A DNA stretch of 60,418 nucleotides, filler included, from Sluysia triapertura (taxonomy: Eukaryota), in the NCBI GenBank assembly GCA_046118255.1. It is 5 parts of 5 records of this genome, joined end to end, with 100 filler letters (N's around TTAATTAATTAA, not from the genome) between each part and the next. Parts side by side here need not be neighbours in the genome. Positions count along the whole stretch, not along the records: positions 25,685 to 38,194 come from JBJNIA010102434.1; positions 38,295 to 49,470 come from JBJNIA010187811.1; 3 more parts are not named here. One strand, written 5' to 3'. A program made the position numbers and the translations under genes. Positions 13,021 to 60,418 of this stretch are shown in pieces; position 1 is the first letter of the stretch; the number at the start of each line of letters is the position of its first letter. Under the pieces are notes generated by a model that was given only the letters and a program-made list of their open reading frames with translations, ran no database searches and was not told the DNA's origin.

Positions 13021-15139
13021 ATCTACTTTTTCGAAACTTATTTTATGGAAATTAACGACTTTAAATGATTCTTTTTATGAAAGTTGATAATTTTATAAGA
13101 TTGTTATGACAACTTAACAATATTATGAAAACATAAATCTCAAAAAGCCTTAAATTATAAATAATAATATAAAAGTAGTACAAATGATAACACAATTGAA
13201 ATAACTTGATTGTTTAAAAATGTATAATTACTTTCAACCCTTTGCCTGTTCACGAATCTTATAATTTTGAGATAATCACAAGTTTGAGATTGTATAATTC
13301 TCAAATTATAAAAATTATGATTCCTTAAATTCTTAAAATTATAAAAATTTTAACTCGGTAGGCACTTTATTATTTTGAACGTCTCAAAAAGGTATTTAAT
13401 ATATGTTAGTGCAAGACATTTAAAGTACATACGTCAACACACGTTGGTTAAATAAATGCCAGGTGATAAAAATTGTTTATTTTTAGCTGTGATTTAAAAA
13501 TAGCTACTTCGAAACAAATGCGCATTTCTATGAATTCTTTTATTGTTTTAACTGAATACTTGAATACTTGAAATAATTTTGAATAACTTAATTTGTTACT
13601 TTACAAAATTGCCTTACACCGATAAAGGATTAATTAAATTAAATTTAACAGTAATAATAAGGCCATTTTAGTTTGATAATAAAATGAAATATCAACATAA
13701 TTCTATATTCAATTAAATTTTTTTAGTGGACATAGACATTTCGGAGCAAAATAAAATCGTTAATACATTTTTCATCGCAAAAGTTAGCAAATACAACACA
13801 TTCTATTTAATTAATTATTTTTAAGTTGTTTTTCATCTAATACAAATATCTTTATACTTATTTTTATTGGTTTAATTATTTCAGATTATTTTTAAATATT
13901 TCTAGGAATTAAATAAAATTTTGAATGTTGAAAAATATGTACTGATACACAACTACTCAACAAACAAAATAAACAAGTCATGCATTCTTTTGATCGTACT
14001 ATTAAATAACTTCTAAGTAATTTAACTTGTTATTTAAATTTAGCCCATAAATTTTCGATTGGATTTGGGTCTATCATACTAAAGGGCAAAATGTGTTCTC
14101 TGTTTAAGTATAGCATGGAGCTCGACCTTGTTGCAAAATTATATTCTTACCAGTTGATAATAATAGTATTTCGAAGCATTTAAACCTAATTTGTCCTATT
14201 CGCATGACTAACGTGGTGTAAACAATTACTATCATGCCTAAAGGAGAAAATTATATCACTTAAAATAACATCGCACACAATTTAAAATACCTTAGTAATC
14301 TAAATAGCTTAAAAGCCTAAAATTAAGGAAGAAATATCTCGAAAAATGCACTTAATTTACAAGTAAATATATGAAAACAAATGTAGAATGTAGCGAAACT
14401 TGAAGTTGAACTTACCACACTTAAATAGCAGACAGACAAGAAATACATGTGACTTCATTAAAATAAAAATGAAAGTATAAATACAAGCAAGCGCAACAAA
14501 TACAAATACGTAACCTCTAAATAAATGTTCATTAAAATAAAATATAAGTCTAATCCAATTTTATAAAAAATCGGCCATATAATCACGAAAATACGTATAT
14601 TTGTGATTTTAACTATACAATGAAATTGGCCAAATAATTGAAATTAATTATAGAAAAATTATTACAGAATGGAATTCCAAAAATTAAACCAATAGAAAAT
14701 ATTATGTAAAGTAGGTTTTTTTTTCCTGATACGAACACAATGTTGCTTGAACAATATTGGACAGATCCACATTATTAGTTACAATATTATTTAGATTGAG
14801 TAACTATAACGCCAGTAATATTAATTCGATTACTTATAATTATTTGTGAAGTTTTATTTGGTTGAAATTAAGCAAAATAAAATTAAAAAATTCCAATATA
14901 TCGAACTACGTTTCATACTGAATTTATTAATAACTTTAGTGATTAAGTGTTTAATTTATTAGTCGTATATGGATACTTTAAGTTTAACTTAATTTTAATA
15001 CTAAGATTTGCATTTCTATAACTACCATCAGAAACGACACAGACACTAATTTGATTGACAGAATAAACGTTACATGAAAGTTATGAAATGAAAAATAATC
15101 ATCGTATCTAAATTAAGATATTTATTTAAACTTATTTAA

Positions 15140-15434
15140 CTCGTTCGCTACCAGCCGGCACATGTGTGCCATTGTAATTCGTTACCAGAGACCAGCGGCA
15201 CATATATGTGCCAGTTATTTTTTGCTAATTTAAGTAGGCATGTTAGGTTCTGTTGCTTTTTGCATGCTTTTGTTAAGTTTAAAAACGATAATATTTGTCA
15301 AAAAAGTATATGGTCTGAATATTCGTAGACAGTTTTAAATATATATAAGTAATTTCAATTAGTGTTGTATTATCCTCAAAAACGTTCTGGTCTGTGGGGT
15401 AGGTTTTTCAAATTATACCCTGGTAGCGAACGAG
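15140..15434. mobile_element. piggyBac-type MITE (295 bp)
   Basis: Perfect 15-bp TIRs CTCGTTCGCTACCAG / CTGGTAGCGAACGAG flanked by TTAA on both sides. An internal ccagc..ggcacat..tgtgcca motif is duplicated. Confidence 0.92.
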
Positions 15435-25295: not shown

Positions 25296-25560
25296 GCAGG
25301 CATGCACAAACTTTTTAAGTTGCGCCCCCATTTCAACATATTTATTTTTGGCGACCCCAACTTAATAAAAAATCGTAACGTCACTATAACAAAAAAAACT
25401 TCATAAATAAAATAAACACCTTTTTAATAACAAAAATGTATTTTTCTATTTCTTATAAATTAAATAAATTAAATATTATGAACAACAACAGTTCTAATTC
25501 TTTAGCTAAAATAAAGAAAAATTAACAAAATTAAATTTTAATTCTTTATATCAAAAATGC
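25296..25560 (+). mobile_element. hAT-like MITE fragment, copy 1
   Basis: About 250 bp, closely similar to 27745-27950(-) (ccccatttcaacatatttatttttggcg..ccccaacttaataaaaa..). Confidence 0.7.
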
Positions 25561-25684: not shown

Positions 25685-25753
<69 letters not shown>

Positions 25754-26230
25754 TAAAATAAAAACAGAAAAATAATACTTTTATTAATGTTTTATATTTA
25801 ACATGATCTTTTCTTTTAATGTAATGAAATATTTTTACATAAAAATAAATGAATTTAAATAAAGTGAAATTTGTTGACTTAGAATGCAAAACCGATTAAA
25901 AGGTGTAAATTGTGATTCTAATGTTATGAGATAATGAATAAAAAATGTTTTAAATGAACTTTTAAATATACGTTGTTGGTTTTGAATGAAAGTAAAGTTT
26001 GGATGTTGAAAGATTGTAAATTTAAAATGTTTTGAAATATGTAAAATAGTTTTAATGGATCTAAAAAATAAAATATGAAAAAGGTTTTGATAATTTTTGA
26101 AAAGGTAACAAGTTAGTTAAGGTATTAAAAGAAATGAATGCAAGATGTATGTAAAAAGGCGTAATATGTAACTAAAGATACTAATAAAAAATTCCGTTTT
26201 AATTATAATGATGTTTGAAAGTCATTTTTG
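25685..26230 (-). repeat. Family D leader (AT-rich conserved block next to (ATA)n)
   Basis: ttgtgattctaatgttatgagataatgaataaa...ttttaatggatctaaaaaa block is shared with ~30360-30560 and ~37095-37280. Confidence 0.8.
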
Positions 26231-26599
26231 TTGGTGCGTTAAATATGATTTTATTTTTATGTTAAAATTAAATTTTTGAAGCAACAAAAAGATATACATT
26301 TTTGGCATTTATTTTTTAAATTAAAAATGAAAAGTGACAAATAACAATTACATAAAACTTTATTTATTATGTAGATAAAAGTTAAATATACTGTCCTGAA
26401 TGATGTGACACGAAAATTTCCTGTTCCGTTATCTGAAGAAAATATAAAAGTTATAATACTATTGTTAGCAGTGTACAATTTATCTACTTTAAGTTTATTG
26501 ATATTCGTCTCGTTAATGCTCGCGTTCAGGTTAGAAATTACAAGGGATCTTAATATATTCCCGATTCGATGAAGTAGATTGGTATCCTGTAAAGAATTA

Positions 26600-27339
26600 G
26601 TGAATGAATTCGTCAGTTCTTCTATAGCATGGGCATATATACAGTTGCTTCCTTATTTGACACAATTTCCGTGTTTGTCGGTGTTAGATAGGAACGTTGC
26701 TCTTTTGATGTCTTTACCAAGATCCATATTAGTCCAATGAGTTTGGCATAGATTGTACTGGAATGCATCACCTTTGTAATCTTTAAGTTTGTAAACATCA
26801 TCATTATATTTATCAAATTCATTATGATCATTTTTATAGTTTTTAGCTTTATAATCAAAAAGTTTATAATCGTTGATTTCGTAATCATTAATCTTATGAT
26901 TGTTAAGTTCGTAATAATTTATTTTATAAACATCAAATTCGTATTCAACATTTGTATAATCGTCAAATTGGTAATAAATACTCTTATTGTCATTAGGTTC
27001 ATAAACAACTTTTGTATAATCGTCAGATTCGCTATCAACATCTTTAATCACCTCATCAAGAGTAAATAATATAAAAAACTCATTCGTATTTTGAATACAT
27101 AATTTAAAACCTCTAACAGTAGAATTATCTTTAACATACAAGTCTATATTTGGTGGCGTATGTACTTTCAGAATAATACGCTTAATTTTTGTACAACAGT
27201 TCAATTTATTTAATGAATGAAGAGTACGATTAAATAAAAGCGTTATCGTTAACAATCTCAATTCCGGCATTGTATGAACTAAGCTATAATTACACTTGTA
27301 ACTAACAACACCATTCTGATCATTGATCTCAGATCGCAC
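26600..27339 (-). pseudogene. Intronless ORF: 'TPPN' segment, Asp/Tyr pentapeptide repeats and a degenerate C-terminal CCCH finger
   Basis: 228-codon ORF. Read through its stop it gives IKRATFLSNTDKHGNCVK*GSNCIYAHAIEEL, a Tis11-like finger with the first Cys lost. Confidence 0.65.
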
Positions 27340-27742
27340 CTTTTTCTGATTGTATCAGCCAATATATAACTAATTTCTCGAAAGTCATTTAAGCTTCTAA
27401 ATACATTATAAATAGGATTATTACGCAATAACCTTTTTAATTGTTGAAATTCGTCCATAATCTTCACGACATCCTGAGCATACAATTTAAATTTGGATTA
27501 GAAATCTCTGTTGGATTTATTTGTTCAATTGACATTGCCTTTCCAAAATAAGTTATGTTATTCAGGTAATTATTATTTATGAAAACATTAGCAAGTACCA
27601 AGTATCCGTGCATCAATATAGAAGAATATATATGATTAAGGCCACAAAATATTTGATATACAAAATAGCTAATTTGATCATACGAACATTCTTCTTTTGA
27701 TGATATTATACGATGTAATTCTGTTTTTACAAAGCTAAACAT
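27340..27742 (-). pseudogene. Intronless degenerate MAP kinase fragment (subdomains V-VII)
   Basis: FVKTELHRIISS...QISYFVYQIFCGLNHIYSSILMHGYLVLANVFIN..ITYFGKA matches MAPK METDLHxII..HIxYFLYQILRGLKYIHSAxVLHRDLKPxNxxIN..ICDFGLA. HRD and DFG are destroyed. Confidence 0.8.
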
Positions 27743-27744
27743 TA

Positions 27745-27950
27745 AAATGTAAAGAATTAAAATTGAATTTTGTTAATATTTCCTTATTTTTGCTAAAGAA
27801 TTAGAACTGTTGTTTTTATAATATTTAATTTATTTAATTTATGAGAAACAGAAAAATACACTTCTTTATTAAAAGGTGTGTAGTTTTTTTATGGGTTTTT
27901 ATTAAGTTGGGGCGCCAAAAATAAATATGTTGAAATGGGGTTGCAGCTTT
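27745..27950 (-). mobile_element. hAT-like MITE fragment, copy 2, abutting the 5' end of the MAPK fragment
   Basis: Reverse complement matches 25320-25560. Confidence 0.7.
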
Positions 27951-28049
27951 ATATAATGTTATAGTTGTGTCAAATTACTACTCATATAATTAGTAAATCA
28001 GTTGTAGTAGTAGTAGACACTAAAGTAAAGTTTGTGGCAGTAGTGGGAG

Positions 28050-28215
28050 CAGTCAGTTGAATCTGGTGGTTTCTCTTAGAGCGGGATTCGACCAACAATA
28101 ACCAAGTGTGTGGGGAATTGGTCTGGCCAAGGAAGAAAGGCATATCAAAAGATGGAGACTTCTGTTGTGCCTTGGGATCGAGTTGTGGGTCCGCCGGGAA
28201 ATTTGTGTGTAGTTG
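28050..28215 (-). mobile_element. Possible Ty3/gypsy Gag N-terminal remnant
   Basis: GC-rich island translating to PFFLGQTNSPHTWLLLVESR, similar to the Gag motif LPxFWxxxPxxWFxxVE. Confidence 0.3.
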
Positions 28216-28599
28216 CGATTACAGCTCCGTGGAAAAAAACTCTAATAGGCTATTTTGAGGTTTTAACATAGAGAACTGAACTTCATAAAAGTTGATTAAA
28301 AAAGGTATAAACATCAAATTGTATATAATTTTACTAAATCTAAAATTGATAATAAAGTTATAATTACTGGGCAGTCTGCATTTCGTATATGTCACTGTCT
28401 CTTTTTTAGGTTGTAGCATCCTAGAATAAAAAGGATCAAAATTAGTTAATACATAAGTATAAAAATCCATAATTACTTTAATATTTTATGGAATTGCATC
28501 ACATCTCCAAATTCATAGTACTTCTTCTTAGATATTGAACTGTTGGTTGCGTTGTCATAGAGTATGGTATGACATGATCATGGAATAGTATTATATTAG

Positions 28600-29387
28600 T
28601 GCCGTGATAACTTATTTGATCTACTGTATGATAGAATTCGCAAGTTGAACCAGATTTGATGCATTGTCATGTCTCACTGGATTGAAATGGGCATTGTAAA
28701 AATCTAATTGAATTCCGTTTTGCTTCAGTTGAAGTGAATTTGTTTCTCGACATAATTTTAAACAAATTTATTACTGATCATGTTACTGTTAGCTTCCTCA
28801 ATATGTCTAGGAATGATCATTGGGTAATAAATAATACTGATATTGATAAATTTATTCATAATTACATCATAAGAATGAGACGGTACTGCTTTCATATATA
28901 GTTTTATATTCGATATATTCCCAATTATTCTTGAATCGTTTGTCAATATAACTTTATTGTTGAATCTGCACACGCTCACTTGTGTCGTCATTAATAACTT
29001 TATCATTTTTCTTGTTAATCTTCTATTTACAATTAATATAGTCTTGTCTTGCTTATAAACTGAGAACATTGATCCATTATCTTCTTTCTCTGAGTGGTTG
29101 ACAGTTTGCGTTACTTCTACTTTACTTATAATTATCATATAATTATCATCGTAATTTTCCTCATCTAATAAAATGTCATCGATACTAATGATTCCTTTGT
29201 CTAATGCGGATTGATCAGAATCTTGTGTACGTACGTATTCAACTTTACTGTTAACATTGTTGCAAGTTTGTGAAATAAACTTTTGGGGGATCAAACTAAA
29301 CTCTTCACTTTTAGATACTAAAAATAATGTTATAGGATCACTGTAATTTAAGAAACACATTGTAGAGAATCTTTTAAAATACGTCAT
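28600..29387 (-). pseudogene. Intronless unknown ORF followed by a frameshifted CCCH finger
   Basis: 209-aa ORF (28758-29387), then CPFQSSET*QCIKSGSTCEFYHTVDQI at 28693-28615. Confidence 0.65.
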
Positions 29388-29739
29388 TGATGCTCATAAA
29401 ACTTGTTGTTGAACACTAAGTCGTTCACAAAATGTAAAAATATCATCAATCGTTGATATTCATTTGCATCACCTAATTCACCAATAATGCTTTGACGATT
29501 TTTTAACATATTTTGTTTATCGTCCATTTAGGAATATAAAAGCCAAAAGAAAATAAAATGAAGTTTACAATATAATTTTTATACGTTGAATTTTATTTTT
29601 GTTTACAGTTTATTATATTATGTTACGTATTGATAAAATTACGAAACTATTAATTTAAATAAAGTATGTATGTGATTTTTACAATAATTATTTCTCAATC
29701 TCTACACAGCCAGTGAAACAGCAACCGTGAATTAACAAC

Positions 29740-29973
29740 GATTGGGCATCCAATCAGGAGAACAAAAGTATTTAGCAAGACAGAAATGATTGGATGTTCA
29801 ATTAAACTGACAGTAAATACATATCAAACATCTGCGCACAGCAACAGCCACTAGTTGACTATCATAGTGATGAATTATTAGCTTTTTAATTTAAATCCGT
29901 CAACTAGTGGCAGATGCAATTGGGAATAGTGATTTTATGATAAAAATGGTTACATTAAATAATAATAATAATA

Positions 29974-30030
<57 letters not shown>

Positions 30031-30639
30031 GACGAAATTCAAATGCATAAACTATTTCGTTCTTTTAACATAATCTTTCTTTTATTTTAAAAAAATATAA
30101 ATATTTCTCGACATAAAAATAACTAAAATTATTTTCTTTCGAAATTAAATTTAAATTAAATTCTTTTGACCACAATGTTCAAACTAATTCTAAAATGTGA
30201 TTGTAGTGTTTTCGATGATATACAAGATTGCAAATTCAAAATGTTTTGGATTAATTTTAAAATATATGTTTGATAATTTAAGGTGTAATTTATGATTCGA
30301 ATATTGTAAATTTGTGAGTACAATGTTTTGAATAAATTTTAACGTTTTCAATGATAATTTAAGATATAATTGTGGTTCTGATGTTATGGGATAATGAATA
30401 AAATGATTTAAACGAATTTTTAAATGTACATTGATGGTTTTGAATGTAAGTATGATTTTGATGTTAAAATTGTGAATTTGAAGTGTTTTGAATGAAAACT
30501 TTTAATGGATCTAAAAAATGTAAAATATAGAAAAAAGTTTCGATACATTGTGAAAGGTAAAATGTACAATGTTAATGAATGTAATTATGCAATTGAAATG
30601 ATGATTTGAATTTTTAGCTAGAGTTTGACTACCACTACA
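29740..30639 (-). promoter_or_regulatory. Family D module: leader, (TAT)n, hairpin, paired CCAAT boxes
   Basis: Perfect 13-bp inverted repeat at 29847-29859 / 29899-29911. gattgggcatccaatc at 29740 and gattggatgttcaat at ~29788. Conserved leader 30030-30639. Confidence 0.65.
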
Positions 30640-31189
30640 TCAACAATCACTAATTCTTGTATTAACTTACAAAGTAGTTGCTGATACACAGTTGGCCAAT
30701 AAAAATTTTAGTACATATCAAAACAAAAGCAATCAGACACACTATTAATCACAATTCATAAATCTTAAAAGTTTTACCAATTTTAAAAATATGTTCAATC
30801 TGAAACTTTATGACGACAAGTCCTATCATATCCTTAAAGACTTTAAAATAAACTCAAATTTATCTATATACGTCTTACACAGTTGCCATCACTCTGACTA
30901 CCATGATGACACAAAACGATCGATTATGTCATAAATGTCATTATCTACAAATTTCAAGCAAGAATCAACGAACCTATAAAATAAGATCATTCACAATATG
31001 GTAAATATATCAAAATAGACCACAATAGCAATGAAAAATGTTTAATATTGTAATGATTCGTTTCAAGATTAGATACACTAAATTCTATAACTAATCATTT
31101 GTATTTTCAGGTGAATCTCAGTACCTCCTCGATATTTACAGAGAATCTGAATTTTATTTTATGAAAGTAAATGTGAATTTAAAAAATTA

Positions 31190-31474
31190 ATGTGTATGGA
31201 TCTGCAAGATTTCGAATTATTAAAGAAATGTTCAACTTCATTCACTAAAATTATGTGGCTAAAAACTCCACCTAATCTCGTTATAAAAATATTTGATATT
31301 GAAAAAGAAATAGAAATTAATAAGGGTTTTGATAAGAATATTATTGTTGTTAGTTTGTCGACAACCTTTAAATCACGATATTTATGTAATAATACATTTA
31401 TTAAAAAATATTTGTACACTATCAACTATATACAGACAATTTTTAACAGATGGACCCTGCAAACGTCAAGATGA
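31190..31474 (+). pseudogene. Short ORF homologous to the TPPN segment of the 26653-27339 ORF
   Basis: TKIMWLKTPPNLVIKIFD..KGF aligns with TKIKRIILKVHTPPNIDLYVKD..RGF. Confidence 0.4.
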
Positions 31475-31989
31475 AATGACTTACACAAGTGGCTGTTTAA
31501 TCACTATCGTGGCAAAATAAAATACATCAACTACCGCAACAGTTAGAAAATACGGGCTTAATTCCGTTAACGGAAAATCATGTGATTTATCTCAAGTACG
31601 GTATTTTAGTTTTTATTCTGATTTTGCTTTAGTTGATTTTTATTCTTATATAAAGTTATTTAAAGTTATGACTTCAATATGTTCGGGACTGTTTCAATAT
31701 TTAACGTTTAACAAGCCAATATCATTTAAATGTTTTGCGTATGATTTGAATAAACGCATTTTATGTTATATTTACTAAATTTTTAATAAATTTAATTTAA
31801 ATTAAAAAATTTATAAAGGAGAATTTTACAGATCCAATGTAGCAATTAATATTAATGGTTTTTATTTCAATAATTCTTATATAAATAAAACTATAGAAAT
31901 GTATTTAAAATTCATAAAACCAAATAAATACTATTCAAATAATTTAACACGAAATCTACATCCATTTCGAAACTTTAATCCACCGACAA

Positions 31990-32457
31990 AATTCGACAAC
32001 GGTCACAGCGGTCAGACCGAAACAACTGGCGGCGGTGTTCTTCTCTATGGGTAGCACCTCTTCAAATCGTCAAAAAGAAAGATGTGTAACTATAGAATGC
32101 TGAACAAAGTCATAGTGCCAGACACATATCCTGTGTCACTCATAACAGATATTCTACACAGATTTTCTGGTTGTAAAATTTTCTCTTCAATAGAGCTCGC
32201 AAATGCATACCACTAAATTCCAGTACATACTGAAGATAGCCGTTACCACTCCTTTCGGTTCGTTCGAATTTACAATGATGTCTTTCGGTCTAAGAAATGC
32301 ATCACAAACCTTCCAGCAACACACGAACGAATTTCTTCAAGGTTTAACTTTCGCCACAGCTTATATCGATGGCATGATAATTGCTTACAGAGATTTTAAA
32401 CAACATCAAACATATCTGGAACAAGTATTCCAAAGACTATCCGATAATAACAATTAG
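31990..32457 (+). mobile_element. Ty3/gypsy reverse transcriptase remnant (frameshifted)
   Basis: CNYRMLNKVIVPDTYPV..FSGCKIFSSIELANAYH and TTPFGSFEFTMMSFGLRNASQTFQ..AYIDG (YxDD decayed). Confidence 0.92.
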
Positions 32458-32629
32458 GCAGCACTAGACTACGAACAATTTCATATCACCCACAATCCAA
32501 ATGTATGAGAGAGAGATTCCGAAGAAACATTACCAAGTTTTACATCGGTATTTTTTCTAAACAAGCTACATTAAACGTAAGTGCGTTAACAAGAAACTTA
32601 TAAAATATATAAACCTTTTTGTGATTGTA

Positions 32630-33330
32630 TATTTACTTCTGGTTATGGTGAGTTCTGTCAAGATGAATAATCTTCTGTAAATGGTCGTGTGAAGTTTTCT
32701 TTAATCAGATATTGTCAAAGTAACTTGGAAATCTTAAGAGAAACATTTATTAAGTTAACGTCAGAATATCAGAATTATTCTCTTTTTATTGAAAATGGAA
32801 ATTTATCTGTAGAACTCCGTCGTAAAGATTTCTACAATACCATGAAAGTAATAAGCACGTAAGATTGAATTGTTTGACGGTTTTCTTACATGAAAATTCA
32901 TCCATTTTTCAGATAAACAATGGAACTAAACATATTATAAGGAACAGTAACGAATATGTTGCATGAAAATATGTTGCACAGTGGGAAAGGTGAAATAAAC
33001 TTTGTGTATCAGTATGTCTACTACAGACGACAACGATGGAACCATTTCGATATTACGAATTAGTGAGACTGAAATCGGAGTTATAGCTAGCTATTGCTAC
33101 TGCTTACAACTACTACTACTGAATTTAGTGGCAGCAGTAATGCTAATTTAGAAGAAGTGTTCGTGAAAAATGCTCAAGGGACAGTTAAGTCTGCTAGTGT
33201 TTTTAGTATCCCAGTATCGTTCGCAGTCGCTCTTTTTATTGCTATTATTTTCATTATAGTATCATTCTTTAAATTCTCGCATCTCCAAGAAATTACGCCA
33301 CATGAAGAAGACATATATCGTATGTGGTAA
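32630..33330 (+). pseudogene. Possible degenerate neurexin/LamG-type single-pass membrane protein fragment
   Basis: GYGEFCQDE (EGF-end-like), LFIENGNLSV and INNGTKHIIR (LamG-like), a Thr-rich stalk, then a TM segment VALFIAIIFIIVSFFKF. Many stops, no introns. Weak similarity. Confidence 0.3.
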
Positions 33331-33679
33331 TGGTAGGTTGCTGAGTCTAATGTTATTTATTACTATTATGAGATTAGGGTTATTTATTAGATAAATTGAT
33401 TTAATTTTATTAAAAGCCGTCGCTAATAATCAAATTTGATTATTAATATTACATTTTAATAAGATTTTTATTATAAAACTAGATGTGAACTTCTTTAAAC
33501 ATAAGAACACATAAGAAAACGAATCTATCTATTTTTATAATATTGAAACTAAAATTAAAAACATTTTTTATTTGTCTAAAATTTTCCTGAAAATGCCACC
33601 TGTAGTCTTCATATACTTCGCTAAATAAAGACGAACATAAAAATAGAAATAAATCAAAATAAATGGAATCATATTTAAG

Positions 33680-34360
33680 AATTATTTATGTCTTCTTGGG
33701 TCATATGGTCCCGTCGGGAAGCAGCAAGATTGACATTGAGAATATTCACCCCATTGACAGAAAAGATTTGCATACGAGAATAACTTGCTAAAATAGAAAA
33801 AAAGGTTCTTTATTCGCTCATAATGTTCACTGGGATTTGCTTGATGAACGACAAAATTTTTAAATTCATTGGCTCTGTGACAATAGGACATCTTCTAGCA
33901 TATTTAGCACATTCACCGGTTTGTGTCGTTTCATATGGACAGATAGCGATCTTATAATTCTTGAAGCCATTACCATAAATTGATGGATTTGTATATAAAA
34001 GTTTGTTATTATTATCAAAAGGCTTTAAGTGGCTAAACTTTGATTCCGTAGTGATAATGATCTCTATGTTATAATAATTGAATCAATGTCTATTAATCTA
34101 AGGGCATTGTAAATATTCTTGTTAGTCTAATATAGACTTCATTAATTTCATTATTACAAAGGTTAATAAGATTCAATAATAACATGCATATTTCATAAGA
34201 CATATCGGAGTTGTTAGATATACATACTGAATGATTATTTTTTCATTTAAAATACTTAAATACATTGCATGTGTCTTTGATTAGACTGTCTTTTATTTGA
34301 CTATCATTGCGTTGATTTAAGGTTGTTAATATAATTACATTTCGATAAAATTATTAGATC
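33680..34360 (-). pseudogene. Degenerate unknown ORF plus frameshifted CCCH finger
   Basis: KNYKIAICPYETTQTGECAKYARRC[1-nt loss]YCHRANEF at 33956-33865. Confidence 0.65.
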
Positions 34361-34812
34361 AAGATTATTTATTAGTAAATTTATATTTATTTTATTAGGA
34401 GATATTATTAAGGCTTTATTGCAGTAAAAAATTTGTATTTCATTTTTACGTTATTTAAGAGAATTAATCTAAAATCTATTAAATTAAATAAAAACACGTA
34501 TAACAATCTAATTTTTTTCATATTAATAAAACTAAAATTATTAATGTTTATTAATTTTCGAATATGTTTTCTTCTCGACCATAATCCAACAACTAAATGA
34601 AAAGATATAATTAAATTATCATCATCATAATTATATCTATTATTTACTTTAATTTCATCAGGTATAGATTCATGCATTTGTATTTTTGTGAAATTGTTGG
34701 CTCGTACTTTGAAATCTTTTACGGATGAATACTGTATTGGAGCAGAAATGTCTATAGATCCCAATAGGCCTTTCATTCTGTCAAGATGCATGCCGGTAAC
34801 TGTTGAGTTAAT

Positions 34813-35007
34813 TTATAGCTCTTCAAGCTCGCTGAGTGAGTGAAAGTACTTACATTTCGTACCATATCTCATGCATTTTCCGTTCTGCATTGTCATAAAC
34901 AGACATAGAGCTGTTTTGTAGTGTTTATTAAAATTTGTTGAACTATAAATCTTTATACGTATGGGTTTGTTGTCCACACGCGATGACTTAAAATCACTAT
35001 ACTTCAC
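34813..35007 (-). pseudogene. CCCH zinc finger (Tis11-like lead-in) directly downstream of the helicase remnant
   Basis: HYKTALCLFMTMQNGKCMRYGTKCKYFHSLSEL. Confidence 0.8.
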
Positions 35008-35084
35008 GTTATCTTATGAATCTTTGATCATGAAGCGTTGAAATTATTGTTAATGATTAGTGAACAAATATTTTGCATAGTAAG

Positions 35085-36180
35085 TCACAATTTCTTTACC
35101 ATCTCAACAAAAGACTTTTCGATTTCAGGAAATATGAAAGTAGTAGCATAATCTGTTTTAACAGTTCGTACAGTTCGACTATTTCTGTAAGGATAAGCAA
35201 CAACATTTTCTGGAACATTGAGATTGAAAACTATAACAATGTCTTCGAAATCTAATACTGTACTGACAAACGGATGAGCAAACATATCACATGCATTACA
35301 TGATTTGGAAAGATTCACGTTTTGTTTCTTGCGAAACATTCGTGGCTTCGAGCATACTGAAAAAATGTCTTTAATATTCATTTTATTTATAATGGATTCA
35401 TAATACCACGTAATAGGATAAACTTTAACAAAGACTAAAACTTTAGATAGGTATGATTTATTATTATAGTGCGTTAATGTTTCACATATTAATCCAACAT
35501 CATTAATCATAGCCCAAATACATTGTTTCAACTGTGTTGGAAAATTACTTTCTAATGTGGCATCAACAAATTGTAGATCATGTAACAAAGATCAGTACTT
35601 CTATTCAACTTCATCATAACATGTCACGGAATAAATTTCTGTTTGTCTAAAAATCTTTATATTATTCTTCTTATCTTTCTTGCTTGATTTTGGTGATATA
35701 ATTCGTAAAACTTTATCAATTTCTTGACCTAATTGATAACTCATCATTATATCTTCCTCGTAAATTGCCAAATGTTGAATAGAATAAAAAATTTCTTTAA
35801 TTTGGCTAGTGTAATGAAGCATCATTAAATTCGACCAGGAGTCAACATCAGGAATACTACGTTCAGTTAATTGATCATTCATATCTCTAGTTAAGCCCAT
35901 TATTTTCAGATTTAATCCTTCACTCATCTTCATTAGTTCACCATACTCTTGTATTACTAATTTTTATAAACATTAATGGTCGATCGATATCTAAACATTG
36001 TTGAATAACTGGAATACAGTAAGAACCAGTTTTTACAATGCCGGTTCCAGATAAACCAGTAACATTTTTATGTTTCAGTAATAATGGTATAGCATGTTGT
36101 TCAATTTGAGACAACTTTAACCATTTTAATTTAGAAATATTGTCTAAAATCTCTGATATTTTAGTTGTGGCTGTTATCAT
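35085..36180 (-). pseudogene. Intronless, disrupted DEAD-box helicase, most similar to DDX56/Dbp9
   Basis: Q motif/motif I (WLKLSQIEQHAIPLLL..GTGIVKTGSYCIPVIQ), decayed DEAD (LAIYEEDIM), motif III (YSVT), and motifs V-VI (LDFEDIVIVFNLNVP..AYPYRNSRTVR..TFIFP), split across three ORFs. Confidence 0.85.
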
Positions 36181-36269
36181 TGTTTAACCAAATAATATTA
36201 TTAAAGTGTTGTTTTTCGTATCCTAGAGGCGCATACAAATACATAAAAATATAAAAGGACCATTTTACA

Positions 36270-37510
36270 AGTGATTGGATGAGAAGCAATATGAAAATAG
36301 CATTGCTTAACTTTCATTAGTTTTTTGTTCAGAACAAGTGATAACGCTGAACATAGTAATTTTCATTGGATAACCAATGACAGTATAGAAACAGTAGTAA
36401 CAAAGTATTGATACACAATTAATGATAATAGCAAGTGAGATAAACTGAATGGTGTGTCTGTATCTATAACTGTCAGCAATTGACAGTAAATTGGATAGAT
36501 AGTATTAAGTTTAATTTAAAACTGTCAATTGCTAGCAGTTACAAAATAAAGTACATAAAATTAAAAATGACTGTGATAATGAAATGATAATAATATTAAT
36601 ATAAAATTGAAGACAAATCATTTTTATTTACTCTTTACATGAGCTTTCTATTAATGTATTAAAATATTTCTTAACATAAAATTAACTAAATAATTAATTT
36701 TTAAAAAAAGATTAAAAATAAAATTCTTTAGAATCATCATGATATTCTTTTGTCTTTGTTATATTATAAATTTATTGATGAAATTACAGATTTCTTTTAA
36801 ATTTAGAGTAAGGTAGCGGTTGGTCTATTTTTTAGCTAAACTTTGCGATACAAGTTTTAGTTCTTATTTTATTTGGAAAAGAGTTTATTGAGTAATAACA
36901 AAGATGTAAATTATAAAAAGACTGGTAAGAAGTGATTGATTCTGAAGTGTTTAGAGAATGTTATTTTGATTACAATATCTAAAATGATTTCAAAGTGTTG
37001 GTTTTATGTTTTCAGTGCTGTTTGATATTGAATGTTGAGGGTTGTAAACTTAAAATATCTTGGATTGAATTTAAGACGGAAAATTGATAGTTTGAGATGT
37101 AATTGTGATTCAAATGTTATGAGATCATGAATAAATGGTTTTAAAGAGTTTTTAGATAAGGATGACAATTTTGAATGTCATTAAGATTTGGATGTTGACA
37201 TATTATTAATTTAAACGTTTTGAGGTATGGAAAATGGTTTTAGTTGATCTGAAGAAATAAAATATAAAAAAAGGTTTTAATGAAAATAGCTAGAATGATA
37301 AAGAATATGATTTTGTGTGAAGTATATTGGATTAAGTTTGCAATGTTTTGAATTAATTTTTAAAGTAAATCTTTGATGATTTTTGGTATTAAATGTGAAT
37401 TTGATGTTATGTAATTTTATTTTTCGAATGTTTGGAAGTATTATGAATTATGAAATGTTGTGAAAGGTCTTTTTAGAATAAGACTCTATGATATTGTGTT
37501 AGTCACCACA
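36270..37510 (-). promoter_or_regulatory. Family D module upstream of the helicase remnant
   Basis: Inverted repeat at 36467-36487 / 36521-36541 (19/21 match), gattgg boxes at ~36273 and ~36365, and a conserved leader starting TGTGGTGACTAAC at 37510. Confidence 0.65.
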
Positions 37511-37797
37511 ATCATTACCAGAATAAACCATAGGCCTAAATTTTAAATTATCTTTTTAAAAGGGAAGAGTTCTGTATTTCTATCAACATATTTGAATGGA
37601 TAATTGAATGTTTTAATTATGTCTAATTTGAATAGATCACAATAATATTGTAGGTTGCTGGATTCGTTAGAAATTATAATAAAATAATTAGACATTGTAA
37701 ATTGAATAATAATAATATTGTTTGATATATTTTTAATTGAATAAATTTTGAAAATTTTTTTATTAACTCTTTCTTTTCTTTTTTTGTTGTTAATGAT

Positions 37798-38123
37798 GAT
37801 TGGACTTCCAATTAGAACAAGCAAAATCACAGTACAGAGGTAACATTGATTGGATGTCCAATCAATTGCTATATTTAACAAGACACAGCTACCAGTATGC
37901 ATGTATGCCGACTGAGATATAGTATTAATTACACTGACATGTAATTAACTGTCATCAGTCTACAGCTCATAAGGTATGTTAAAATGTTTTAAATTAAACT
38001 GTCGACTGGCAACAGGGTGTAATTAAAAAGACACTTATATAATGGTAATAAAAATGAGAATATAATTAATTTTGGTAATGCATTAAAATAATGATAATAC
38101 AAATGGTTATCATTATTGAATAA

Positions 38124-38194
<71 letters not shown>
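37798..38194 (-). promoter_or_regulatory. Family D module cut by the contig end
   Basis: gattggacttccaat (37798), gattggatgtccaatc (37848), inverted repeat at 37949-37965 / 37999-38015, then (ATA)n. Confidence 0.6.
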
Positions 38195-38294
38195 NNNNNN
38201 NNNNNNNNNNNNNNNNNNNNNNNNNNNNNNNNNNNNNNTTAATTAATTAANNNNNNNNNNNNNNNNNNNNNNNNNNNNNNNNNNNNNNNNNNNN
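38195..38294. other. Artificial contig linker
   Basis: N run with TTAATTAATTAA. Confidence 0.98.
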
Positions 38295-39499
38295 AGAAAA
38301 CATATAATTTTACTTTAAATAAGAAATACACACTATTTGACAAATTACTCGACAAAAAATATAACAGGAATTTTAATATATAATGCTTTGAAATATTAGA
38401 GTTTATTTTCTCTAATATTTGATTGAAAATTTTAGTGATTTTAAAATTGTGGCAACACAATTTTTTAGTTCAAATAGTTTATCTGGATTTTAAGTCTTAG
38501 ATATGTAAGACAATCCTTATAAAAAATTATCTTACGTTCATGGGCATTATTGAAAATTTAGTTGTCGAATATCAAATCCAAGAATGTTCCTCCGGTTTAA
38601 CATTCGAAATCGTATACGCTTCTGTCTATATATAACGTTTTCGATTCTGTATTCTTACTTTTATATTTTTTGTGTATCTTGGTATTATTTGACAATTTCT
38701 TTTTATACCAAGTCGAGCAATTGTAGTTGCGTAATAGCTGTGATGTAACGTAGGCACAATTGCAAATGTTAAAATTTTTGTACAAATTAAAAATTTGCAT
38801 CAAAATTAAAGATAATTGGCCAAAATAAAAATTATTCGTAGCAAATAAAATTAATTATAATTAAAATGTCATTGCAAATTTTGAAATTTTATGTTTATGT
38901 TATGAATTATATTTTGGAAGTTGTGGATTAACTGATAAAACCATTAATGAGATGATTGCAATAAGATTTACAGTGTAATGACAGTGAACGTGGAAATTTC
39001 TAGTTGAAATCAATATGTAGATCTGAAAGAGGTTATTTATGAAATTGTGCATGAATGTTTCGTAAGATGTTCTATTACGGTCGTTTTCAATTAATAGTTT
39101 TCTCTAGCCCATAAAAGGTCTTTGGGCTAATGAAGAAATAAGGATGAAAAAAAGAAGTATCTAGAAAGAACTTCGATGTTTAATTTTGCTACGTTAGTTT
39201 AATCAATGATACTTCTTTTAGAGATTTACATTGTGATAGCATATCAATCTTAATTACTAATGTTAACAATTGCTGGAAACGACTTGAATTTAATTTAAGA
39301 AAACAGTAAATTGTACTATCGATTTAAAACCTTGATTCTATTGTATTAGTATAATATGGTTCACCACTTCTTTTTTTTAACATTGAAATAAAAATCAATT
39401 AAATTTATTAATATACACCACATCACCATACAAATAATGCACATACCGTAGTGTCATCGACACTGTTGCTATTATTAATAGTCCATTTAGTTTTTGATT

Positions 39500-40602
39500 G
39501 ATTGTCCAATCACGACTTCGACAAAATTGAAATGAATGATATTGGTCGCGATTGGACATCAATGTTATGTTGTGCATGGTGATAGCAAACTATCATCAAT
39601 AATGACAATTTGATAAAAATAATGACTAAAATGTCATCATTGATGATGGCGACAACCAAAATTTAATTTAATATTTAAAGCTATTAAATGATTGATAATA
39701 ATAATAACAATAATAATAATAATAATAATAATAATATTATCAATAAATAAAAATAAAGTGCATAAATATTTCTCTTACTGAAACCCACAAGATCTTTTCT
39801 TTTAAAATCTTTCATTCTACATATGAATAAAATAAAAAGGAAATAAAACTGATGACGTACTGTAAAGGAACAACGGTGACGAGGTATGTTGTGTCTCGGT
39901 TATCGTTGTTGCTTCATATTAAGATAATGAATTGTTTAAAGCTTTGATATATTTGTTTGTAAAGATAAAAGGAATGATTTGTGTTGTACTTGAAACGAAG
40001 AATGTTAGAATAAATTACTAAAATTTATTAAGGTTTGGAATTAAAAATAAGATTTGAGCATTGAATATGATAGTTTGAGGTACTTATTGAAAGGTTGTAG
40101 TTTATTTAGTTTTGAAATACGATTAAAAAATAAATCTTAACGTGTTTGTAATGTGATTAAAATGGGTACTGAAAATGAACATGTGTAAATGAAGTAGATT
40201 TAGCTTGGTGTACTTAGTTAAAGATTTTAATGTAAATGTTTTCTATTTCTGAGGTACTTGTTAACGTTGTTGAATGGTGTTATTGTATTTATGATTTGTG
40301 TATTATACATTGTGGTTGTGGTTTGTTTGATGGAATCGTTTTTGAGTGAATGTTGTGGATTATTCGGGATTGATTATCAAAGTATGTTGTGAGGTAGGTG
40401 GTTAATGGTATTTATCGAATTATTGATATATGAATTGATGAGATGTTATAAATGTAGAGTGTTGTTTATGATGATTGAGTTGGTGTAGTTCAATAGTAAG
40501 AAGTGTGATTGCTTTAGAATTTATGTTTTATTGAAATTTAAATTATGGTTATTGGATATTATGTTTTTAAAAAGTTTTAGGTTGTGAGTGTTGGCCACTA
40601 CA
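39500..40602 (-). promoter_or_regulatory. Family D module
   Basis: gattgtccaatc (39500), gattggacatcaat (39550), inverted repeat at 39590-39607 / 39632-39649 (16/18), (ATA)n, and a start TGTAGTGGCCAAC at 40602. Confidence 0.6.
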
Positions 40603-44289: not shown

Positions 44290-44682
44290 TCGAAAACGAT
44301 ATTTGTGGTTTTGTTGACGGTATTTCATAGCATAATAATGAATCTTGCGAAATTTCTGATGATGTCGGAAGAAGAACAAAAGAATAAGAAGAAAGGTTGA
44401 AAGTAAAGATAAAAGAAATAATAATGATAACAATAATGTATTAATTATATATTTTAAAATAATGGTGTTGATGATGTTGTGGTGCAATTATAAAGTTATT
44501 GTATGATAATCACATTATATAACAATAATGATAATAATTATTATATATTTTAATACGATTGGATTTGTAATAATACTAGCTATAGTTCATGATAATTATG
44601 TAGAGTAGTTTGATTAATGTTCCGTATATATGAGATATTTTTATGTGGTGAAACATTGATATTTTGATATGATTTCCCTACG
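44290..44682 (-). repeat. Repeat family B
   Basis: Reverse complement begins (c)GTAGGGAAATC and aligns with 45513-45900. Confidence 0.8.
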
Positions 44683-45346
44683 GTATTTATGTTAGTGTGA
44701 CAGATAATAAATATTATTCAACAAGAAATATTTTCAATATTCTTTATGTAATAATTAATTGATGTTATTCCACCATTTAAAATGTAAACTTCAAAATATG
44801 CAACATTTAAGATAATACCCTAAAATTTAATTCACTTAAAATATGAATTGCAAAGTTGCGCTGATTTTTAGGAAAGTGATATAAATCAAAACGTAAACAA
44901 CAATGTTTTTATCAAAAAATCATAAAATATAAAATACACTCAAAGTAATATAAAAGTTATTAGAAAAGAAGAAATCGAATGATAGTTTAATTGTTTTCTT
45001 TAGGGTTGCAAATATATTTAATATGACTTTTCGTTTATTTTAAGTCAGTTTTTAAAATGCGACAAACCATACAGAAATATAACTAATGTTGATTTTTATT
45101 AAATATTCCGCTGAGGTAATTTGTTTTAGAATGACCATTTTTTTCAAAATGATTCAAATCAATTTATAGAAGGTTGATGATTGGAACTTAAACTAACAAA
45201 TTCTGAAAAATGGTTTCAGTAAGAATCTTTTGTGACATAAGGTTTAATTTAAAATACTCGAATTCAACAAATCGTAGTTTATTTCTGTCTTTTGTGTGAA
45301 ACGAGTTGTCGTATTTTGTACCAAATAATCAATTTATTAAATTATT

Positions 45347-45501
45347 TGTTGGGATACCGGCCTAAAGTGCCATTTAGAATAATGGAATATTCTAATCTAA
45401 AATTGTTAGACGGGGCTGATAGCTCACTGGTAGAGCATCGAACTGCGCAGCGAGAGATCCCTGGTTCGATCCTCGGTCAGTCCATTTTATGAAGTCTAAC
45501 A
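45347..45501 (+). mobile_element. tRNA-containing LTR-like repeat, copy 1
   Basis: TGTTGGG...GTCTAACA termini. Internal tRNA-like cassette at ~45413-45484 with A box, B box GGTTCGATCC and a TTTT terminator. Confidence 0.85.
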
Positions 45502-45512
45502 TGTAACACCTT

Positions 45513-45941
45513 TGTAGGGAATTCATCACATAAAAACACTTCACATATACACAGACAATTAAACAAACTACTAAACTCATTTAAAAACAAACACGACCAT
45601 CACATCTAATTATCATGAACTATCGCTATTATTATTACAATTCAGATCGTATTAAAATATATATAATAATTATAGTCATTATTGTCATATAATATGATCA
45701 TATAGTAATAACTTTTATAATAACTTTTATAATAATTTTCATGATAAAATTTCATAATAAATTTCAACAATTATGTATTAATAAACCTAATAACTACAGA
45801 ATTGTTATCATTATTATTATTTCCTATTCCTACTATTTTTTTGTTCATTTTTATTATCAATCTTTCTTTCCCTTTTTATATTATGCAATATATCTGACTG
45901 TGATACCGGAAAATTTGTACTTTTCTATTTTATTTCCTACA
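45513..45941 (+). repeat. Repeat family B (TGTAGGGAA...TTCCTACA)
   Basis: Homologous to 11151/12241 and 44682(-). This copy has inverted TG..CA termini. Confidence 0.8.
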
Positions 45942-48309: not shown

Positions 48310-48481
48310 CGTCGGGCTCACCAATTGTTAGACTTCGTAAAATGGACTGACCGGGGATCGAACCCAGGACCATCGCTGCGCAGTTCGATTGCTCTACCAT
48401 TGAGCTATCAGCCCCGTCTAGAAATTTTATATTTCTATAGTCCATTATACTATATGGCACTTTAGGCCTTTTACCCCAACA
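48310..48481 (-). mobile_element. tRNA-containing LTR copy 2 (48481-48326) with adjacent tRNA-Trp-like primer-binding site
   Basis: TGTTGGGG...GTCTAACA, then AT, then TGGTGAGCCCGACG (13/14 match to the Trp PBS TGGTGACCCCGACG). Confidence 0.85.
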
Positions 48482-49470
48482 CTATAATTAAATTTATTAT
48501 ATACTAAAATAATATAAAAGGACAGACTTTTCGCAAGGTTAATATAGAAATAGTTATTCAAGGAGATTTTAGAGAATAATTAAAGAAGATTTTTACAAGA
48601 AGACGATAGAAATTTTATAAAGAAGACTGTAGATGATTATTTTTTCAAACCTAATTGTTAGTTTTAATACGTTTAAGAAAAGTTTAATTGAAATAATAAA
48701 ATTTACTAAATTTTTGATTTAAGCACTCAGTAACATTTAATTACCATATAAAAGCATTTTAAAAAACACTTCAAGTATTTAAATATTAATTGCTAAAATT
48801 AATATTATCCTGAAATACTATAAAAAAATCTGATATAAATTTATAGAGCTAAAATTGAAAAGTTGCTTTGATAAATTAATAGATTGTTTTTTGATTAAAA
48901 TATTATTGTATATTCATAATTCCATTTGATTTTAAACCTCTAATTCTCTTATTACAAATTGACATGCTTCTGTACATTTATAATTTTATTTTTATTAATA
49001 CATAATTTCAAAAAATTGTATTCTTTTGGTATTAAATAAAATAAGAATTAAGCTTGAATTAATATTTTATAAAGTTATATTACGATTATTACTTAAAATA
49101 TAACAAATTTCTTATTACGAAAGTTTCATAATAACTAAATTTATCGAAAGGAGAATCAAAAATAACTATCTAAAACTAAGAAAAAGTAGCATCAAAATTA
49201 AATATTAAAGCCTCCAAATTCTTGTCTTTGTCTCTTAAAAACTGCGAATCTATGTGCTAGTCCTTCATTGAGTAAGTCCAGTATCATACAGAACTTACGT
49301 TATTATTTAATCTTAATCTCATTGCAAATAACTATAAAAATTTTAACATCAAATTTCAACAAATTTACAAATAAATAGCAAAATCGTTTTCTATTAGCTC
49401 CAAAATAAATGTAATTACATAAATTTACTTCAAACTTTCTTTTAAAAATATCAAATACATGATTATCTTT

Positions 49471-53146: not shown

Positions 53147-53436
53147 TACAGTATAATTTCTAATAAAAATTTAATTATAATATAAATATTAAATAAAAAA
53201 ATAAATACACAAGTGTTACTCATATATATAATTAATAACTTATTACTATAAATTATAATTATTATAAATTATAAATTATAAAAATTATATAAAATTACTA
53301 TATAAATAGAAAAATTAATATAAATACTCTCAATAATTAATATTTTAATGCGAAATATTAAAACAAATAATACAATTATAATAATATAATTATAATAATT
53401 ACTTTTATATAAAAAAGTAATAAAAAAAATAATAAT

Positions 53437-54302
53437 TCACAATATCCTTAATATTTATCATGAATTTTGAATATTTCAGTTTTGTGTTGTTTAATGATAT
53501 TAAAAACATAATGCAAAATAATTATATATTTGTTCAAATCAATGTGTTGGATTAGCTCACTGTGGAATAGAAATGAGTAAAGAAGATGCGCAATTGAAAG
53601 ATGCCAGAAAACGTGATACAAGATGATAGGCAAATCATTGTGATTGATGAAGATGAAGTTACTTAAAATCATTTTGTGTATAGAAAAATACCTTGGAATT
53701 ACAAATGCATTAAGATCCTTCAGGAAGCTTGGGATTGGTTCGGAAAACATTTTGAAGCGTTAACGTATCTTTGAACTTGTGAACCCTGAAACCATTTGAA
53801 ACTTCATAAACTTTTAAAGATCTTTAAAACCTTAAAGTAATCTTGTAAAGTGTTTGAAATATTTGAGAAGTAAAATTACTGATACTAATATTAGAAATAA
53901 ATTTGATTCCTTAATAATTAACATAAAGATTCGTGAAGGTGAAAACATTTAGAGCCTCTTGAATGTCATATAAAGTACCAAACAACTTTAAAAGTCTTAA
54001 TAAAACCTTTTAACATAAATAATACTAATAATGCTCAATATCTTTAATATTTATCATGAATTTTTGAACATTTCAGTTTTGTATTGTTTAATGATATTAA
54101 AAACAAAATGCAAAACAACTATATATTTTTTCAAATCAATGTTTTGTGATTACCACACTGTGGAATAAGGAATAAATAAGGAAGATGCGTAATTGAAAGG
54201 TGCAGGAAAACGTGATACAGAGTGATAGGCAAATCATAACCAAATATTGTGAAGTGAGAATGATGAAGACGAAGTTACTTATGATCATTTTGAGTATAGA
54301 AA
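53437..54302 (+). repeat. Direct duplication of ~250 bp (53437-53685 and 54035-54302)
   Basis: Clear colinear similarity with substitutions and one ~15-bp indel. Confidence 0.9.
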
Positions 54303-60000: not shown

Positions 60001-60418
60001 TTAATATTTAAAAACTTCTGATTTTAGATGTAATATATTTCAGGTGTTCTAGAACAAAGAAAGGATGTAATTAAAGATTTATAATGCATATGTGGATCGA
60101 TTAATATATGTGCTTAAAGTAAATGGCAATAATGATTAATGATATTTGGTTTTCATAATTTTAGATTAATTTATATTTGAGAAAATATGTATTCATGTTT
60201 TAGTAGACATTATTTAAAATATTATTTTATTATGGCTGATTTTATGATGCTATAGCCGCCAATGTTTGTTTTTTATGAATGATGGGGAAAAGTGTGCGTC
60301 GAAGCATTAAAAAGTAACGAATATTGGATACAAATTGGATATAAATTTCACTAAAACATAATTTCTAAAGCAATCACACTTCATACTATCGAACTACACC
60401 AACTCAATCATCATAAAC

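Follow-up and report, generated by a model that had tools for sequence, protein, structure and literature searches.

A 60,418-nt window of the genome of Sluysia triapertura (GenBank assembly GCA_046118255.1), composed of five contigs with N spacers between them and having a GC content of 25%, was analysed for a repeated upstream module that a preliminary description had taken for a mobile expression cassette. The module, consisting of a leader, a (TAT)n tract, inverted repeats (IRs) and CCAAT boxes, was found to be real and well beyond chance. It is interpreted here, with moderate confidence, as the planarian-type promoter of a tandem array of CCCH genes that gained retrocopies in the manner of the jingwei gene and is now decaying. 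This interpretation is carried by homologies between the units, intron signals, intronless collinearity and a deficit of stop codons, all of which were observed directly.

According to this interpretation, a lineage-specific single-finger CCCH RNA-binding gene would have been duplicated in tandem at the DNA level together with its upstream region, which comprised a C-rich leader, the (TAT)n tract, palindromic TGACAG-type sites and double-CCAAT sites. Judging from its motifs, this region was probably a regulated NF-Y-type RNA polymerase II promoter. Processed copies of other host mRNAs would then have been inserted into the redundant array. A DDX47-like retrocopy would have landed between the promoter and the CCCH exon of unit B, used the promoter of B and diverged as an open, helicase-dead open reading frame (ORF), possibly fused to the finger. 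Pieces of a MAP kinase (MAPK), a cystathionine gamma-lyase (CGL) and a reverse transcriptase (RT) would be further insertions. The activity of the promoter, the RNA origin of the cargo, the fusion and the order of these events are what we infer.

Published work offers a precedent for both parts of this scheme; statements on articles cited by PMC number refer throughout to their accessible parts. In planarians, tissue-specific promoters hold an excess of A/T trinucleotide repeats and CCAAT boxes (PMC10558129), and retrogenes are known to come under the control of promoters that belong to duplicated or redundant genes, as in the case of jingwei (PMC2413143). A combination of (TAT)n and CCAAT is the usual composition of such planarian promoters.

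Copies of the upstream module

The copies were labelled A (38194-37798), B (37510-36270), C (30639-29740), D (40602-39500), P (a partial leader, 26230-25685) and E (54858-55843). A, B, C and P form one 12.5-kb contig (contig 3), D belongs to the contig that follows and E to the final one. The copies had been said to occur on three unlinked contigs; A, B, C and P are on a single contig with module (TAT)n ends, which may therefore be linked to the others. Because both ends of contig 3 are the module's own (TAT)n tracts, the CCCH array probably continues, and since the contig ends in the tract of copy A, the A leader was not assembled. Long (AAT)n tracts stand at four contig ends in the window. 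The parts of the module were located as follows.

38119..38194, minus strand: copy A (TAT)n tract, at the contig end
37946..38015, minus strand: copy A first inverted repeat (IR1); fold z-score (z) -3.98; missed by the unsupervised IR scan
37797..37864, minus strand: copy A, two double-CCAAT palindromes 50 nt apart
37543..37695, minus strand: copy A short ORF of 50-51 codons, with the B leader directly after it; no family match; p 0.044
36600..37510, minus strand: C-rich leader of copy B, whose start motif is at 37510 and whose TAT tract is degenerate
36467..36541, minus strand: copy B IR1, found by the unsupervised scan; fold z -7.4
36272..36380, minus strand: CCAAT sites of copy B, namely a palindrome at 36380-36363 and a further single CCAAT at 36278
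30035..30639, minus strand: leader of copy C, containing the start motif and degenerate repeats of 81-82 nt
29958..30033, minus strand: copy C (TAT)n tract
29841..29917, minus strand: copy C IR1, found by the unsupervised scan; fold z -4.4
29739..29804, minus strand: copy C, two double-CCAAT palindromes 48 nt apart
25685..26280, minus strand: leader P with (TAT)n tract; the contig ends inside the tract
39495..40602, minus strand: copy D, a distant relative, with leader, (TAT)n tract (39740-39693) and two IRs (39647-39592 and 39558-39503)
60096..60418, plus strand: sequence related to the upstream flank and leader start of D, truncated where the window ends; z 16.4

The four minus-strand copies have in common a (TAT)n tract, an IR of ~70 nt with covarying arms and double-CCAAT palindromes. 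The tract, which had been ascribed to every copy, was confirmed in A, C, D and P; in B it is degenerate and was not detected, and E has none. Inverted repeats had been claimed for all four minus-strand copies, and the unsupervised scan bore this out, since six of the nine IRs that it found in 60 kb lie inside A-D. At a score of at least 18, six IRs were observed, five of them in the module, whereas 40 local shuffles gave a mean of 0.075 and a maximum of 1. The IRs of A-D fold strongly (z -2.1 to -7.4).

Each copy contains two elements, the IR1 hairpin and then the pair of double-CCAAT palindromes. In A-C, the IR1 arms are palindromes similar to CTGYCA-N5-TGRCAG. This pattern has 7 matches compared with 1.6 expected, 4 of them in the module, and the double-CCAAT palindrome has all six of its sites with at most one mismatch inside A-D; these counts are circular because both patterns were derived from these same sites. 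At up to three mismatches, the double-CCAAT palindrome has 36 sites compared with 21.5 expected. The paired CCAAT boxes had been placed ~50 bp apart, which holds for A (50 nt), C (48 nt) and D (46 nt) but not for B (~91 nt). Among A, B and C, 5 of 19 IR1 arm pairs are changed on both sides, a result reached in 2 of 500 shuffles (n=3). Covariation can also arise by quasi-palindrome correction.

The leaders of P, C and B are mutually homologous (z 12-15), and six of the seven strongest C-rich/G-poor segments are the leaders named earlier. The leader of D is weakly related to those of P and B (z 4.1-4.6) and not to that of C (z 0.3). The promoter parts were aligned for A and B (z 7.1, over 240 nt between the motifs), A and C (z 3.4) and B and C (z 2.8), and that of D did not align with any of them (z at most 1.4). 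Leave-one-out nhmmer searches recovered A (E value 9e-4), B (0.049) and C (0.007), and only the palindrome of D. The palindromes were found in no host gene of the window, and an IR is near only three of the nine TAT tracts.

The shared leader did not extend to E or to position 48196, neither of which showed homology. E had been described as a diverged plus-strand copy; it has no (TAT)n tract, no CCAAT palindrome and no nhmmer match, its z is at most 2.3 against the leaders and 1.0 against the promoter parts, and the C-rich block there begins 280 nt ahead of the motif. Being without every downstream part, E should be dropped from the set of copies. Position 48196, proposed as another module start, is a lone C-rich start (z at most 2.0), and E likewise has only the start motif and C-richness. 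The start motif alone occurs at chance (6 compared with 4.07 expected; 18 of 100 shuffles). A broken ORF reminiscent of the N-terminus of Caprin lies outside the module at 56038-56400 on the plus strand. Pfam, PDB and the Atlas gave no support for the Caprin fragment that had been named as one of the cargoes.

Downstream of D, neither a CCCH sequence nor an ORF beyond chance (85 aa, p 0.066) was found. A degenerate frame there (39386-39192, minus strand) is reminiscent of the N-terminus of a Harbinger transposase but had no database match, and a candidate CCCH relic upstream of D (E value 0.19) was not recovered by a nucleotide hidden Markov model.

The CCCH array and the sequences within it

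Four same-strand paralogues of a single-finger CCCH gene lie on contig 3, two in each of the long units, together with several other fragments.

34530..35094, minus strand: CCCH paralogue B1, finger at 34905-34840; Pfam E value 1.9e-7
34593..34647, minus strand: B1 predicted 55-nt phase-0 GT-AG intron
33545..34046, minus strand: CCCH paralogue B2, intron donor lost; E value 2.2e-4; z 9.8 to B1
28330..28790, minus strand: CCCH paralogue C1, predicted 56-nt intron at 28476-28421; E value 0.016
26310..27354, minus strand: CCCH paralogue C2, whose N-terminus shares the reading frame of the finger; 55-nt intron predicted at 26487-26433; E value 9.9e-6
28758..29527, minus strand: C-unit coding sequence, 47 aa and then 211 aa across a frameshift; no family match
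35085..36183, minus strand: DDX47-like DEAD-box core, intronless, with a frameshift near 35960 and two stops; C-terminal part missing
32055..32457, plus strand: RT fragment in two frames, antisense to the array; PF00078 E value 6.5e-8
30896..31384, plus strand: CGL fragment, intronless, antisense; PDB E value 6.3e-6
27533..27739, minus strand: MAPK fragment, intronless, with altered catalytic motifs; PDB E value 7.5e-8
27747..27949, no strand assigned: ~200-nt dispersed repeat inserted in the array; second copy at 25317-25551, 79% identity

All four paralogues match Pfam zf-CCCH_UNK (E values 2e-7 to 0.016), align beyond the finger (z 4.0-9.8, with B1/B2 and B1/C2 at 9.6-9.8) and have their 3' end in common. 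Leave-one-out nhmmer recovered three of them, the exception being C1. In three of the four, a 55-56-nt phase-0 GT-AG intron is predicted after a Lys codon and is followed by a short exon; in B2, the donor has been lost. Such an acceptor is near only 10 of the 1806 GTA sites in the window. Because the predicted intron was kept, the CCCH part was copied as DNA, or as unspliced RNA, and does not belong to the intronless cargo to which it had been assigned. Judged from these alignments and intron predictions, the array is a tandem paralogous family of DNA-level duplicates. The local identities of B and C are similar in the leader (307/430, 71%), the promoter (117/174, 67%) and the CCCH 3' part (143/199, 72%), as expected from duplication of whole units; the global identities, given below, are less even.

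It had been stated that a mobile cassette would be contradicted if most copies lacked downstream ORFs or had randomly oriented neighbours, or if all of these ORFs belonged to one ordinary tandem family. About half of this was found: both copies with long ORFs lead into the one tandem CCCH family, and a genuine ORF is missing from two of the four copies. The claim that the module precedes different ORFs is supported in that it stands before non-homologous coding sequences.

The N-termini of the paralogues are less easily assigned. No alignment was obtained between the sequences that lie 5' of the four CCCH copies (78 pairs; the best z, 3.6, is that of the B1/B2 3' flank). Stop-free stretches in two of these sequences reach 211 and 233 residues, compared with shuffle maxima of 107 and 104, and on this basis the two N-termini, which match no family, are clearly coding. 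Since the finger regions themselves are only ~30% identical in protein, both could be diverged native sequences and not captures. For the 211-aa ORF of unit C, nothing was found in Pfam/NCBIfam up to an E value of 10, in the Atlas or by phage tblastn; a PDB match to IspD was rejected (E value 0.54), and a single-sequence fold gave a pLDDT of 29. The C2 ORF contains 30-nt in-frame repeats rich in Asp, Tyr and Asn (26773-27090, minus strand). For the CCCH module as a whole, 1.84 billion representatives held no full-length relative; the 19 matches cover the finger only, and none has a DEAD-box domain. No report of such an array in planarians was found among the full-text literature matches listed, as far as their accessible parts go.

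The helicase in unit B had been called DDX56-like. Its best PDB match is DDX47 (E value 2.6e-7, first of 46), DDX56 is not among the matches listed, and it is therefore described here as DDX47-like. Its identity to human DDX47 is ~32% in the best region. The piece is collinear with the DEAD-box model, and since ~340 codons correspond to 339 model positions, there is no room for an intron. It ends shortly after motif VI, motifs I and VI are altered, and the ORF is predicted to be helicase-dead. The helicase looks retro-derived, and to judge from the matches it is the sole clear capture, copy B being the only one with identified foreign cargo. Protein database searches with the helicase pieces gave 0 of 296 and 0 of 63 candidates.

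One frameshift and two stops interrupt the 365 codons of the helicase. When neutral decay of host codons was simulated down to 79-41% identity, 6-20 stops were expected, with 6-7 at an identity of 78-79% and 17-19 at one of 41-42% (P at most 0.04 throughout). Given this deficit of stops, the copy was probably translated as it evolved, and this counts as indirect evidence for a working promoter. Of the proposal that the module acquires retro-derived host sequence and generates chimeric genes, the part concerning a retro-derived sequence that was probably translated for much of its history is retained, and the mobile unit is not.

The helicase, CGL and MAPK pieces together amount to ~1.7 kb of intronless host-derived sequence, for which the density in the host ARMC4-like gene (5 introns in ~1.3 kb) predicts ~6 introns; this is a one-gene estimate, and the parent genes are outside the window. 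The CGL piece has 9 stops in 163 codons, some possibly resulting from a local frameshift, and an intron suspected in it was disproved by collinearity. The RT fragment is presumably of the gypsy type. All units now contain stops or frameshifts. The ~200-nt dispersed repeat borders the MAPK fragment in one copy (27747-27949) and an ARMC4-like exon in the other (25317-25551). An open frame with a transmembrane-like end also lies inside the array (33091-33330, plus strand; weak Renin_r match, E value 0.017).

Several observations weigh against a tandem array that gained retrocopies. The global identities are unequal (0.79-0.86 for a leader core picked as best conserved, 0.57-0.67 for the promoter and 0.50-0.59 for the finger region), whereas one date of duplication would not lead to such differences. 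The architecture recurs in D, on a different contig and without a CCCH gene, and the covariation of the IR1 arms is without explanation. The linker between the helicase and the CCCH part, at which the two are possibly fused, is now out of frame and contains stops. The helicase piece has neither a 3' end nor poly(A), which is more like template switching than retroposition by a long interspersed nuclear element (PMC5131818). Three intronless host fragments and two N-termini without a match in 12 kb are many for chance.

Alternative explanations

The strongest alternative, although an unlikely one, is a non-autonomous element of the long terminal repeat (LTR) or Pack type. The ~1 kb of leader, (TAT)n tract, IRs and CCAAT boxes would be a terminal repeat with its own promoter, starting with TGT; the CCCH gene would be a fixed accessory gene, the cargo would be swapped by template switching of RT, and contig 3 would be a nest or tandem of elements. 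Consistent with this, copies within a contig are all direct repeats, the ORF of A is cut off by the leader of B, and the array contains an RT fragment and a high density of fragments. The cargo is truncated at the 3' end and lacks poly(A), as in LTR-mediated retrocopies (PMC5131818), and planarian Burro elements carry host-like domains (PMC6431247). However, the RT piece is short and antisense, and the CCCH module keeps its predicted intron.

The termini were also considered. In favour of the element, three (those of D, C and 48196) of the 15 C-rich blocks have TGTRGT at their 5' edge (background 0.025 per 50 nt), and the start motif of B is 42 nt off its block edge. A purine run directly precedes the TGT of the copy at 60293, and such runs occur at 3 of 2403 TGT sites, but none of the five named starts (B, C, D, E and 48196) is preceded by a polypurine tract. 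The LTR primer site (CA-TGG pattern) occurs at the background rate, with matches in one of four copies and 0.7 expected per 450 nt. The homology between D and 60096-60418 extends ~200 nt upstream of the start motif; that this motif is a boundary is not shown by these sequences. With respect to terminal inverted repeats (TIRs), the first 40 nt have no inverted copy within 1.7 kb in B or D, and C has one AT-rich 11-mer. Neither a conserved 3' end of the module nor poly(A) at the fragment ends examined was found. For the mobile cassette proposed earlier, the search thus revealed neither a delimited 3' end nor an LTR primer site, a TIR, a Helitron end or poly(A). LTR, TIR and Helitron signals could have decayed at ~30% divergence; a promoter moving on its own is not supported, since nothing here shows it.

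A related and similarly unlikely possibility is a reusable gene-fusion scaffold, a family of non-autonomous flatworm elements in which the 5' promoter module (covarying hairpin and double-CCAAT palindromes) and the 3' CCCH exon with its intron would stay constant while processed host mRNA fragments were repeatedly swapped in between. If this were true, translated RNA-binding fusion proteins with enzymatically dead host domains would be formed.

It is improbable that two independent things are involved, namely a leader derived from a dispersed repeat (such as the TAT-tailed 3' end of a retroposon) landing in (TAT)n tracts that happen to precede ordinary promoters, and IR and CCAAT sites that are a generic promoter type, alike by shared factor sites and not by descent. 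The leader cores (79-86%) are about as alike as copies of a tRNA-like repeat in the window (82-83%) and more alike than the promoters, C-rich starts without a promoter exist at 48196 and 54858, and the D promoter does not align to the others. This is countered by the alignment of the A and B promoters over the 240 nt between motifs, by the leave-one-out recovery of A, B and C, and by the absence of palindromes from the host genes of the window and of IRs from most TAT tracts.

A rolling-circle element of the Helitron/Helentron type, with captured promoter and gene fragments in head-to-tail arrays, has only a slight chance of being the source. The mosaic of fragments on both strands and the retained intron would suit it, the plus-strand order of IR, microsatellite and degenerate 81-nt repeats resembles HINE (PMC7492417, PMC4067079), and promoter capture is known in bats (PMC4778049). 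Nevertheless, a hairpin with CTRR was present at none of seven boundaries, there was neither a 5' TC nor a subterminal repeat pair common to both ends, the IR arms had no second copy at the far end, and no Rep/helicase was found in six-frame Pfam scans. The only hairpin with CTRR in the window belongs to a GC-richer stretch with a palindrome at 15134-15230.

The least probable explanation is that the two IRs are small-RNA precursor hairpins, a microRNA-like pair, and not DNA sites: the strong folding, the covarying IR1 pairs and a score of 30.9 bits of the second D IR on mir-219, star arm included, are outweighed by the Rfam cut-off of 54.5, the lack of a match in A, B and C, the palindromic nature of each arm, the fact that the mir-219 match follows from the CCAAT palindrome with 2-3 changes, the lack of a long stem common to the second IRs, and quasi-palindrome correction as another source of covariation. 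The sub-cut-off match (39491-39569, plus strand) covers the first 11 nt of the mature arm and the star arm.

Host, neighbouring sequences and known systems

The host ARMC4-like gene shows at most 75% identity to spiralian proteins, with no close match among the 120 listed. In a quick tree of 54 rows, it was sister to trematodes with a support of 92 (Shimodaira-Hasegawa-like approximate likelihood ratio test, SH-aLRT), and Macrostomum was outside. By this placement, the host is a flatworm. It is presumably a planarian; the tree has no planarian row. The ordinary host genes of the window are ARMC4/ODAD2-like, CH/RhoGEF, EF-hand and PAP2 pieces (25125-18985, minus strand; 10647-6678, minus strand; 46.7-47.6 kb, plus strand); the CH/RhoGEF gene is one that we take to be Vav-like.

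The tRNA-like repeat of ~155 nt has three copies, which are 82-83% identical (45348-45501, plus strand; 48326-48484, minus strand; 59847-60001, plus strand). Two of them score 49 and 32 bits on the Rfam tRNA model, and ARAGORN detected no tRNAs. Because it starts with TGTTGGG and ends with CTAACA (TG...CA), it may be a short interspersed nuclear element or a tiny solo LTR. A dispersed C-rich AT repeat family with 68-75% identity is present at 12238-12567, 44372-44695 and 45496-45886, and one of its copies adjoins a truncated-looking intronless ORF of a G-protein-coupled receptor (44440-43802). The segments 53290-53686 and 53871-54302 are a local direct duplication (74%) upstream of a minus-strand epimerase-like exon.

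Among known systems, the array resembles jingwei-type chimeric retrogenes (PMC2413143), in which a duplicated or redundant gene lends its promoter to a retrocopy that has landed downstream and evolves as a new coding gene. It differs in that the retrocopy here is 5' of a host exon and truncated at the 3' end, several fragments occur in one array, and fusion and expression are putative. LTR-mediated retrocopies (PMC5131818) are likewise partial, 3'-truncated, tail-less and intronless copies of several parents between direct repeats, but A-D lack a primer site, purine tract and CA end, no sense element ORF flanks them, and a constant module bears an intron. Pack-TIRs and Ssk-FB4 (PMC8277862) also turn multicopy captured host sequence into chimeric, fast-evolving animal proteins; in the present case, no TIRs were found and the cargo looks processed.

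HelibatN3 (PMC4778049) and HINE/DINE-1 (PMC4067079, PMC7492417) share with the array a repeated promoter-like module and its IR, microsatellite and tandem-repeat parts, whereas TC/CTAG ends, a 3' hairpin and a subterminal inverted repeat pair were not found here. The planarian Burro LTR elements (PMC6431247) come from the likely host group and carry host-like domains; the array has no gag/pol/env polyprotein, and CCCH and DEAD-box are not among the Burro domains described in the accessible part of that article. Planarian tissue-specific promoters (PMC10558129) likewise combine A/T trinucleotide repeats with CCAAT boxes, while double-CCAAT palindromes and a covarying IR are not described in the accessible part of that source.

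If the module belonged to an LTR- or Pack-type element, it would represent a systematic domain-shuffling device in an animal. If the favoured explanation of a tandem CCCH array with jingwei-style retrocopies is correct, the locus would be a case of new-gene birth in a flatworm, in which a retrocopy of a conserved helicase entered a fast-evolving, lineage-specific RNA-binding array, where its catalytic motifs were lost but its frame stayed open.

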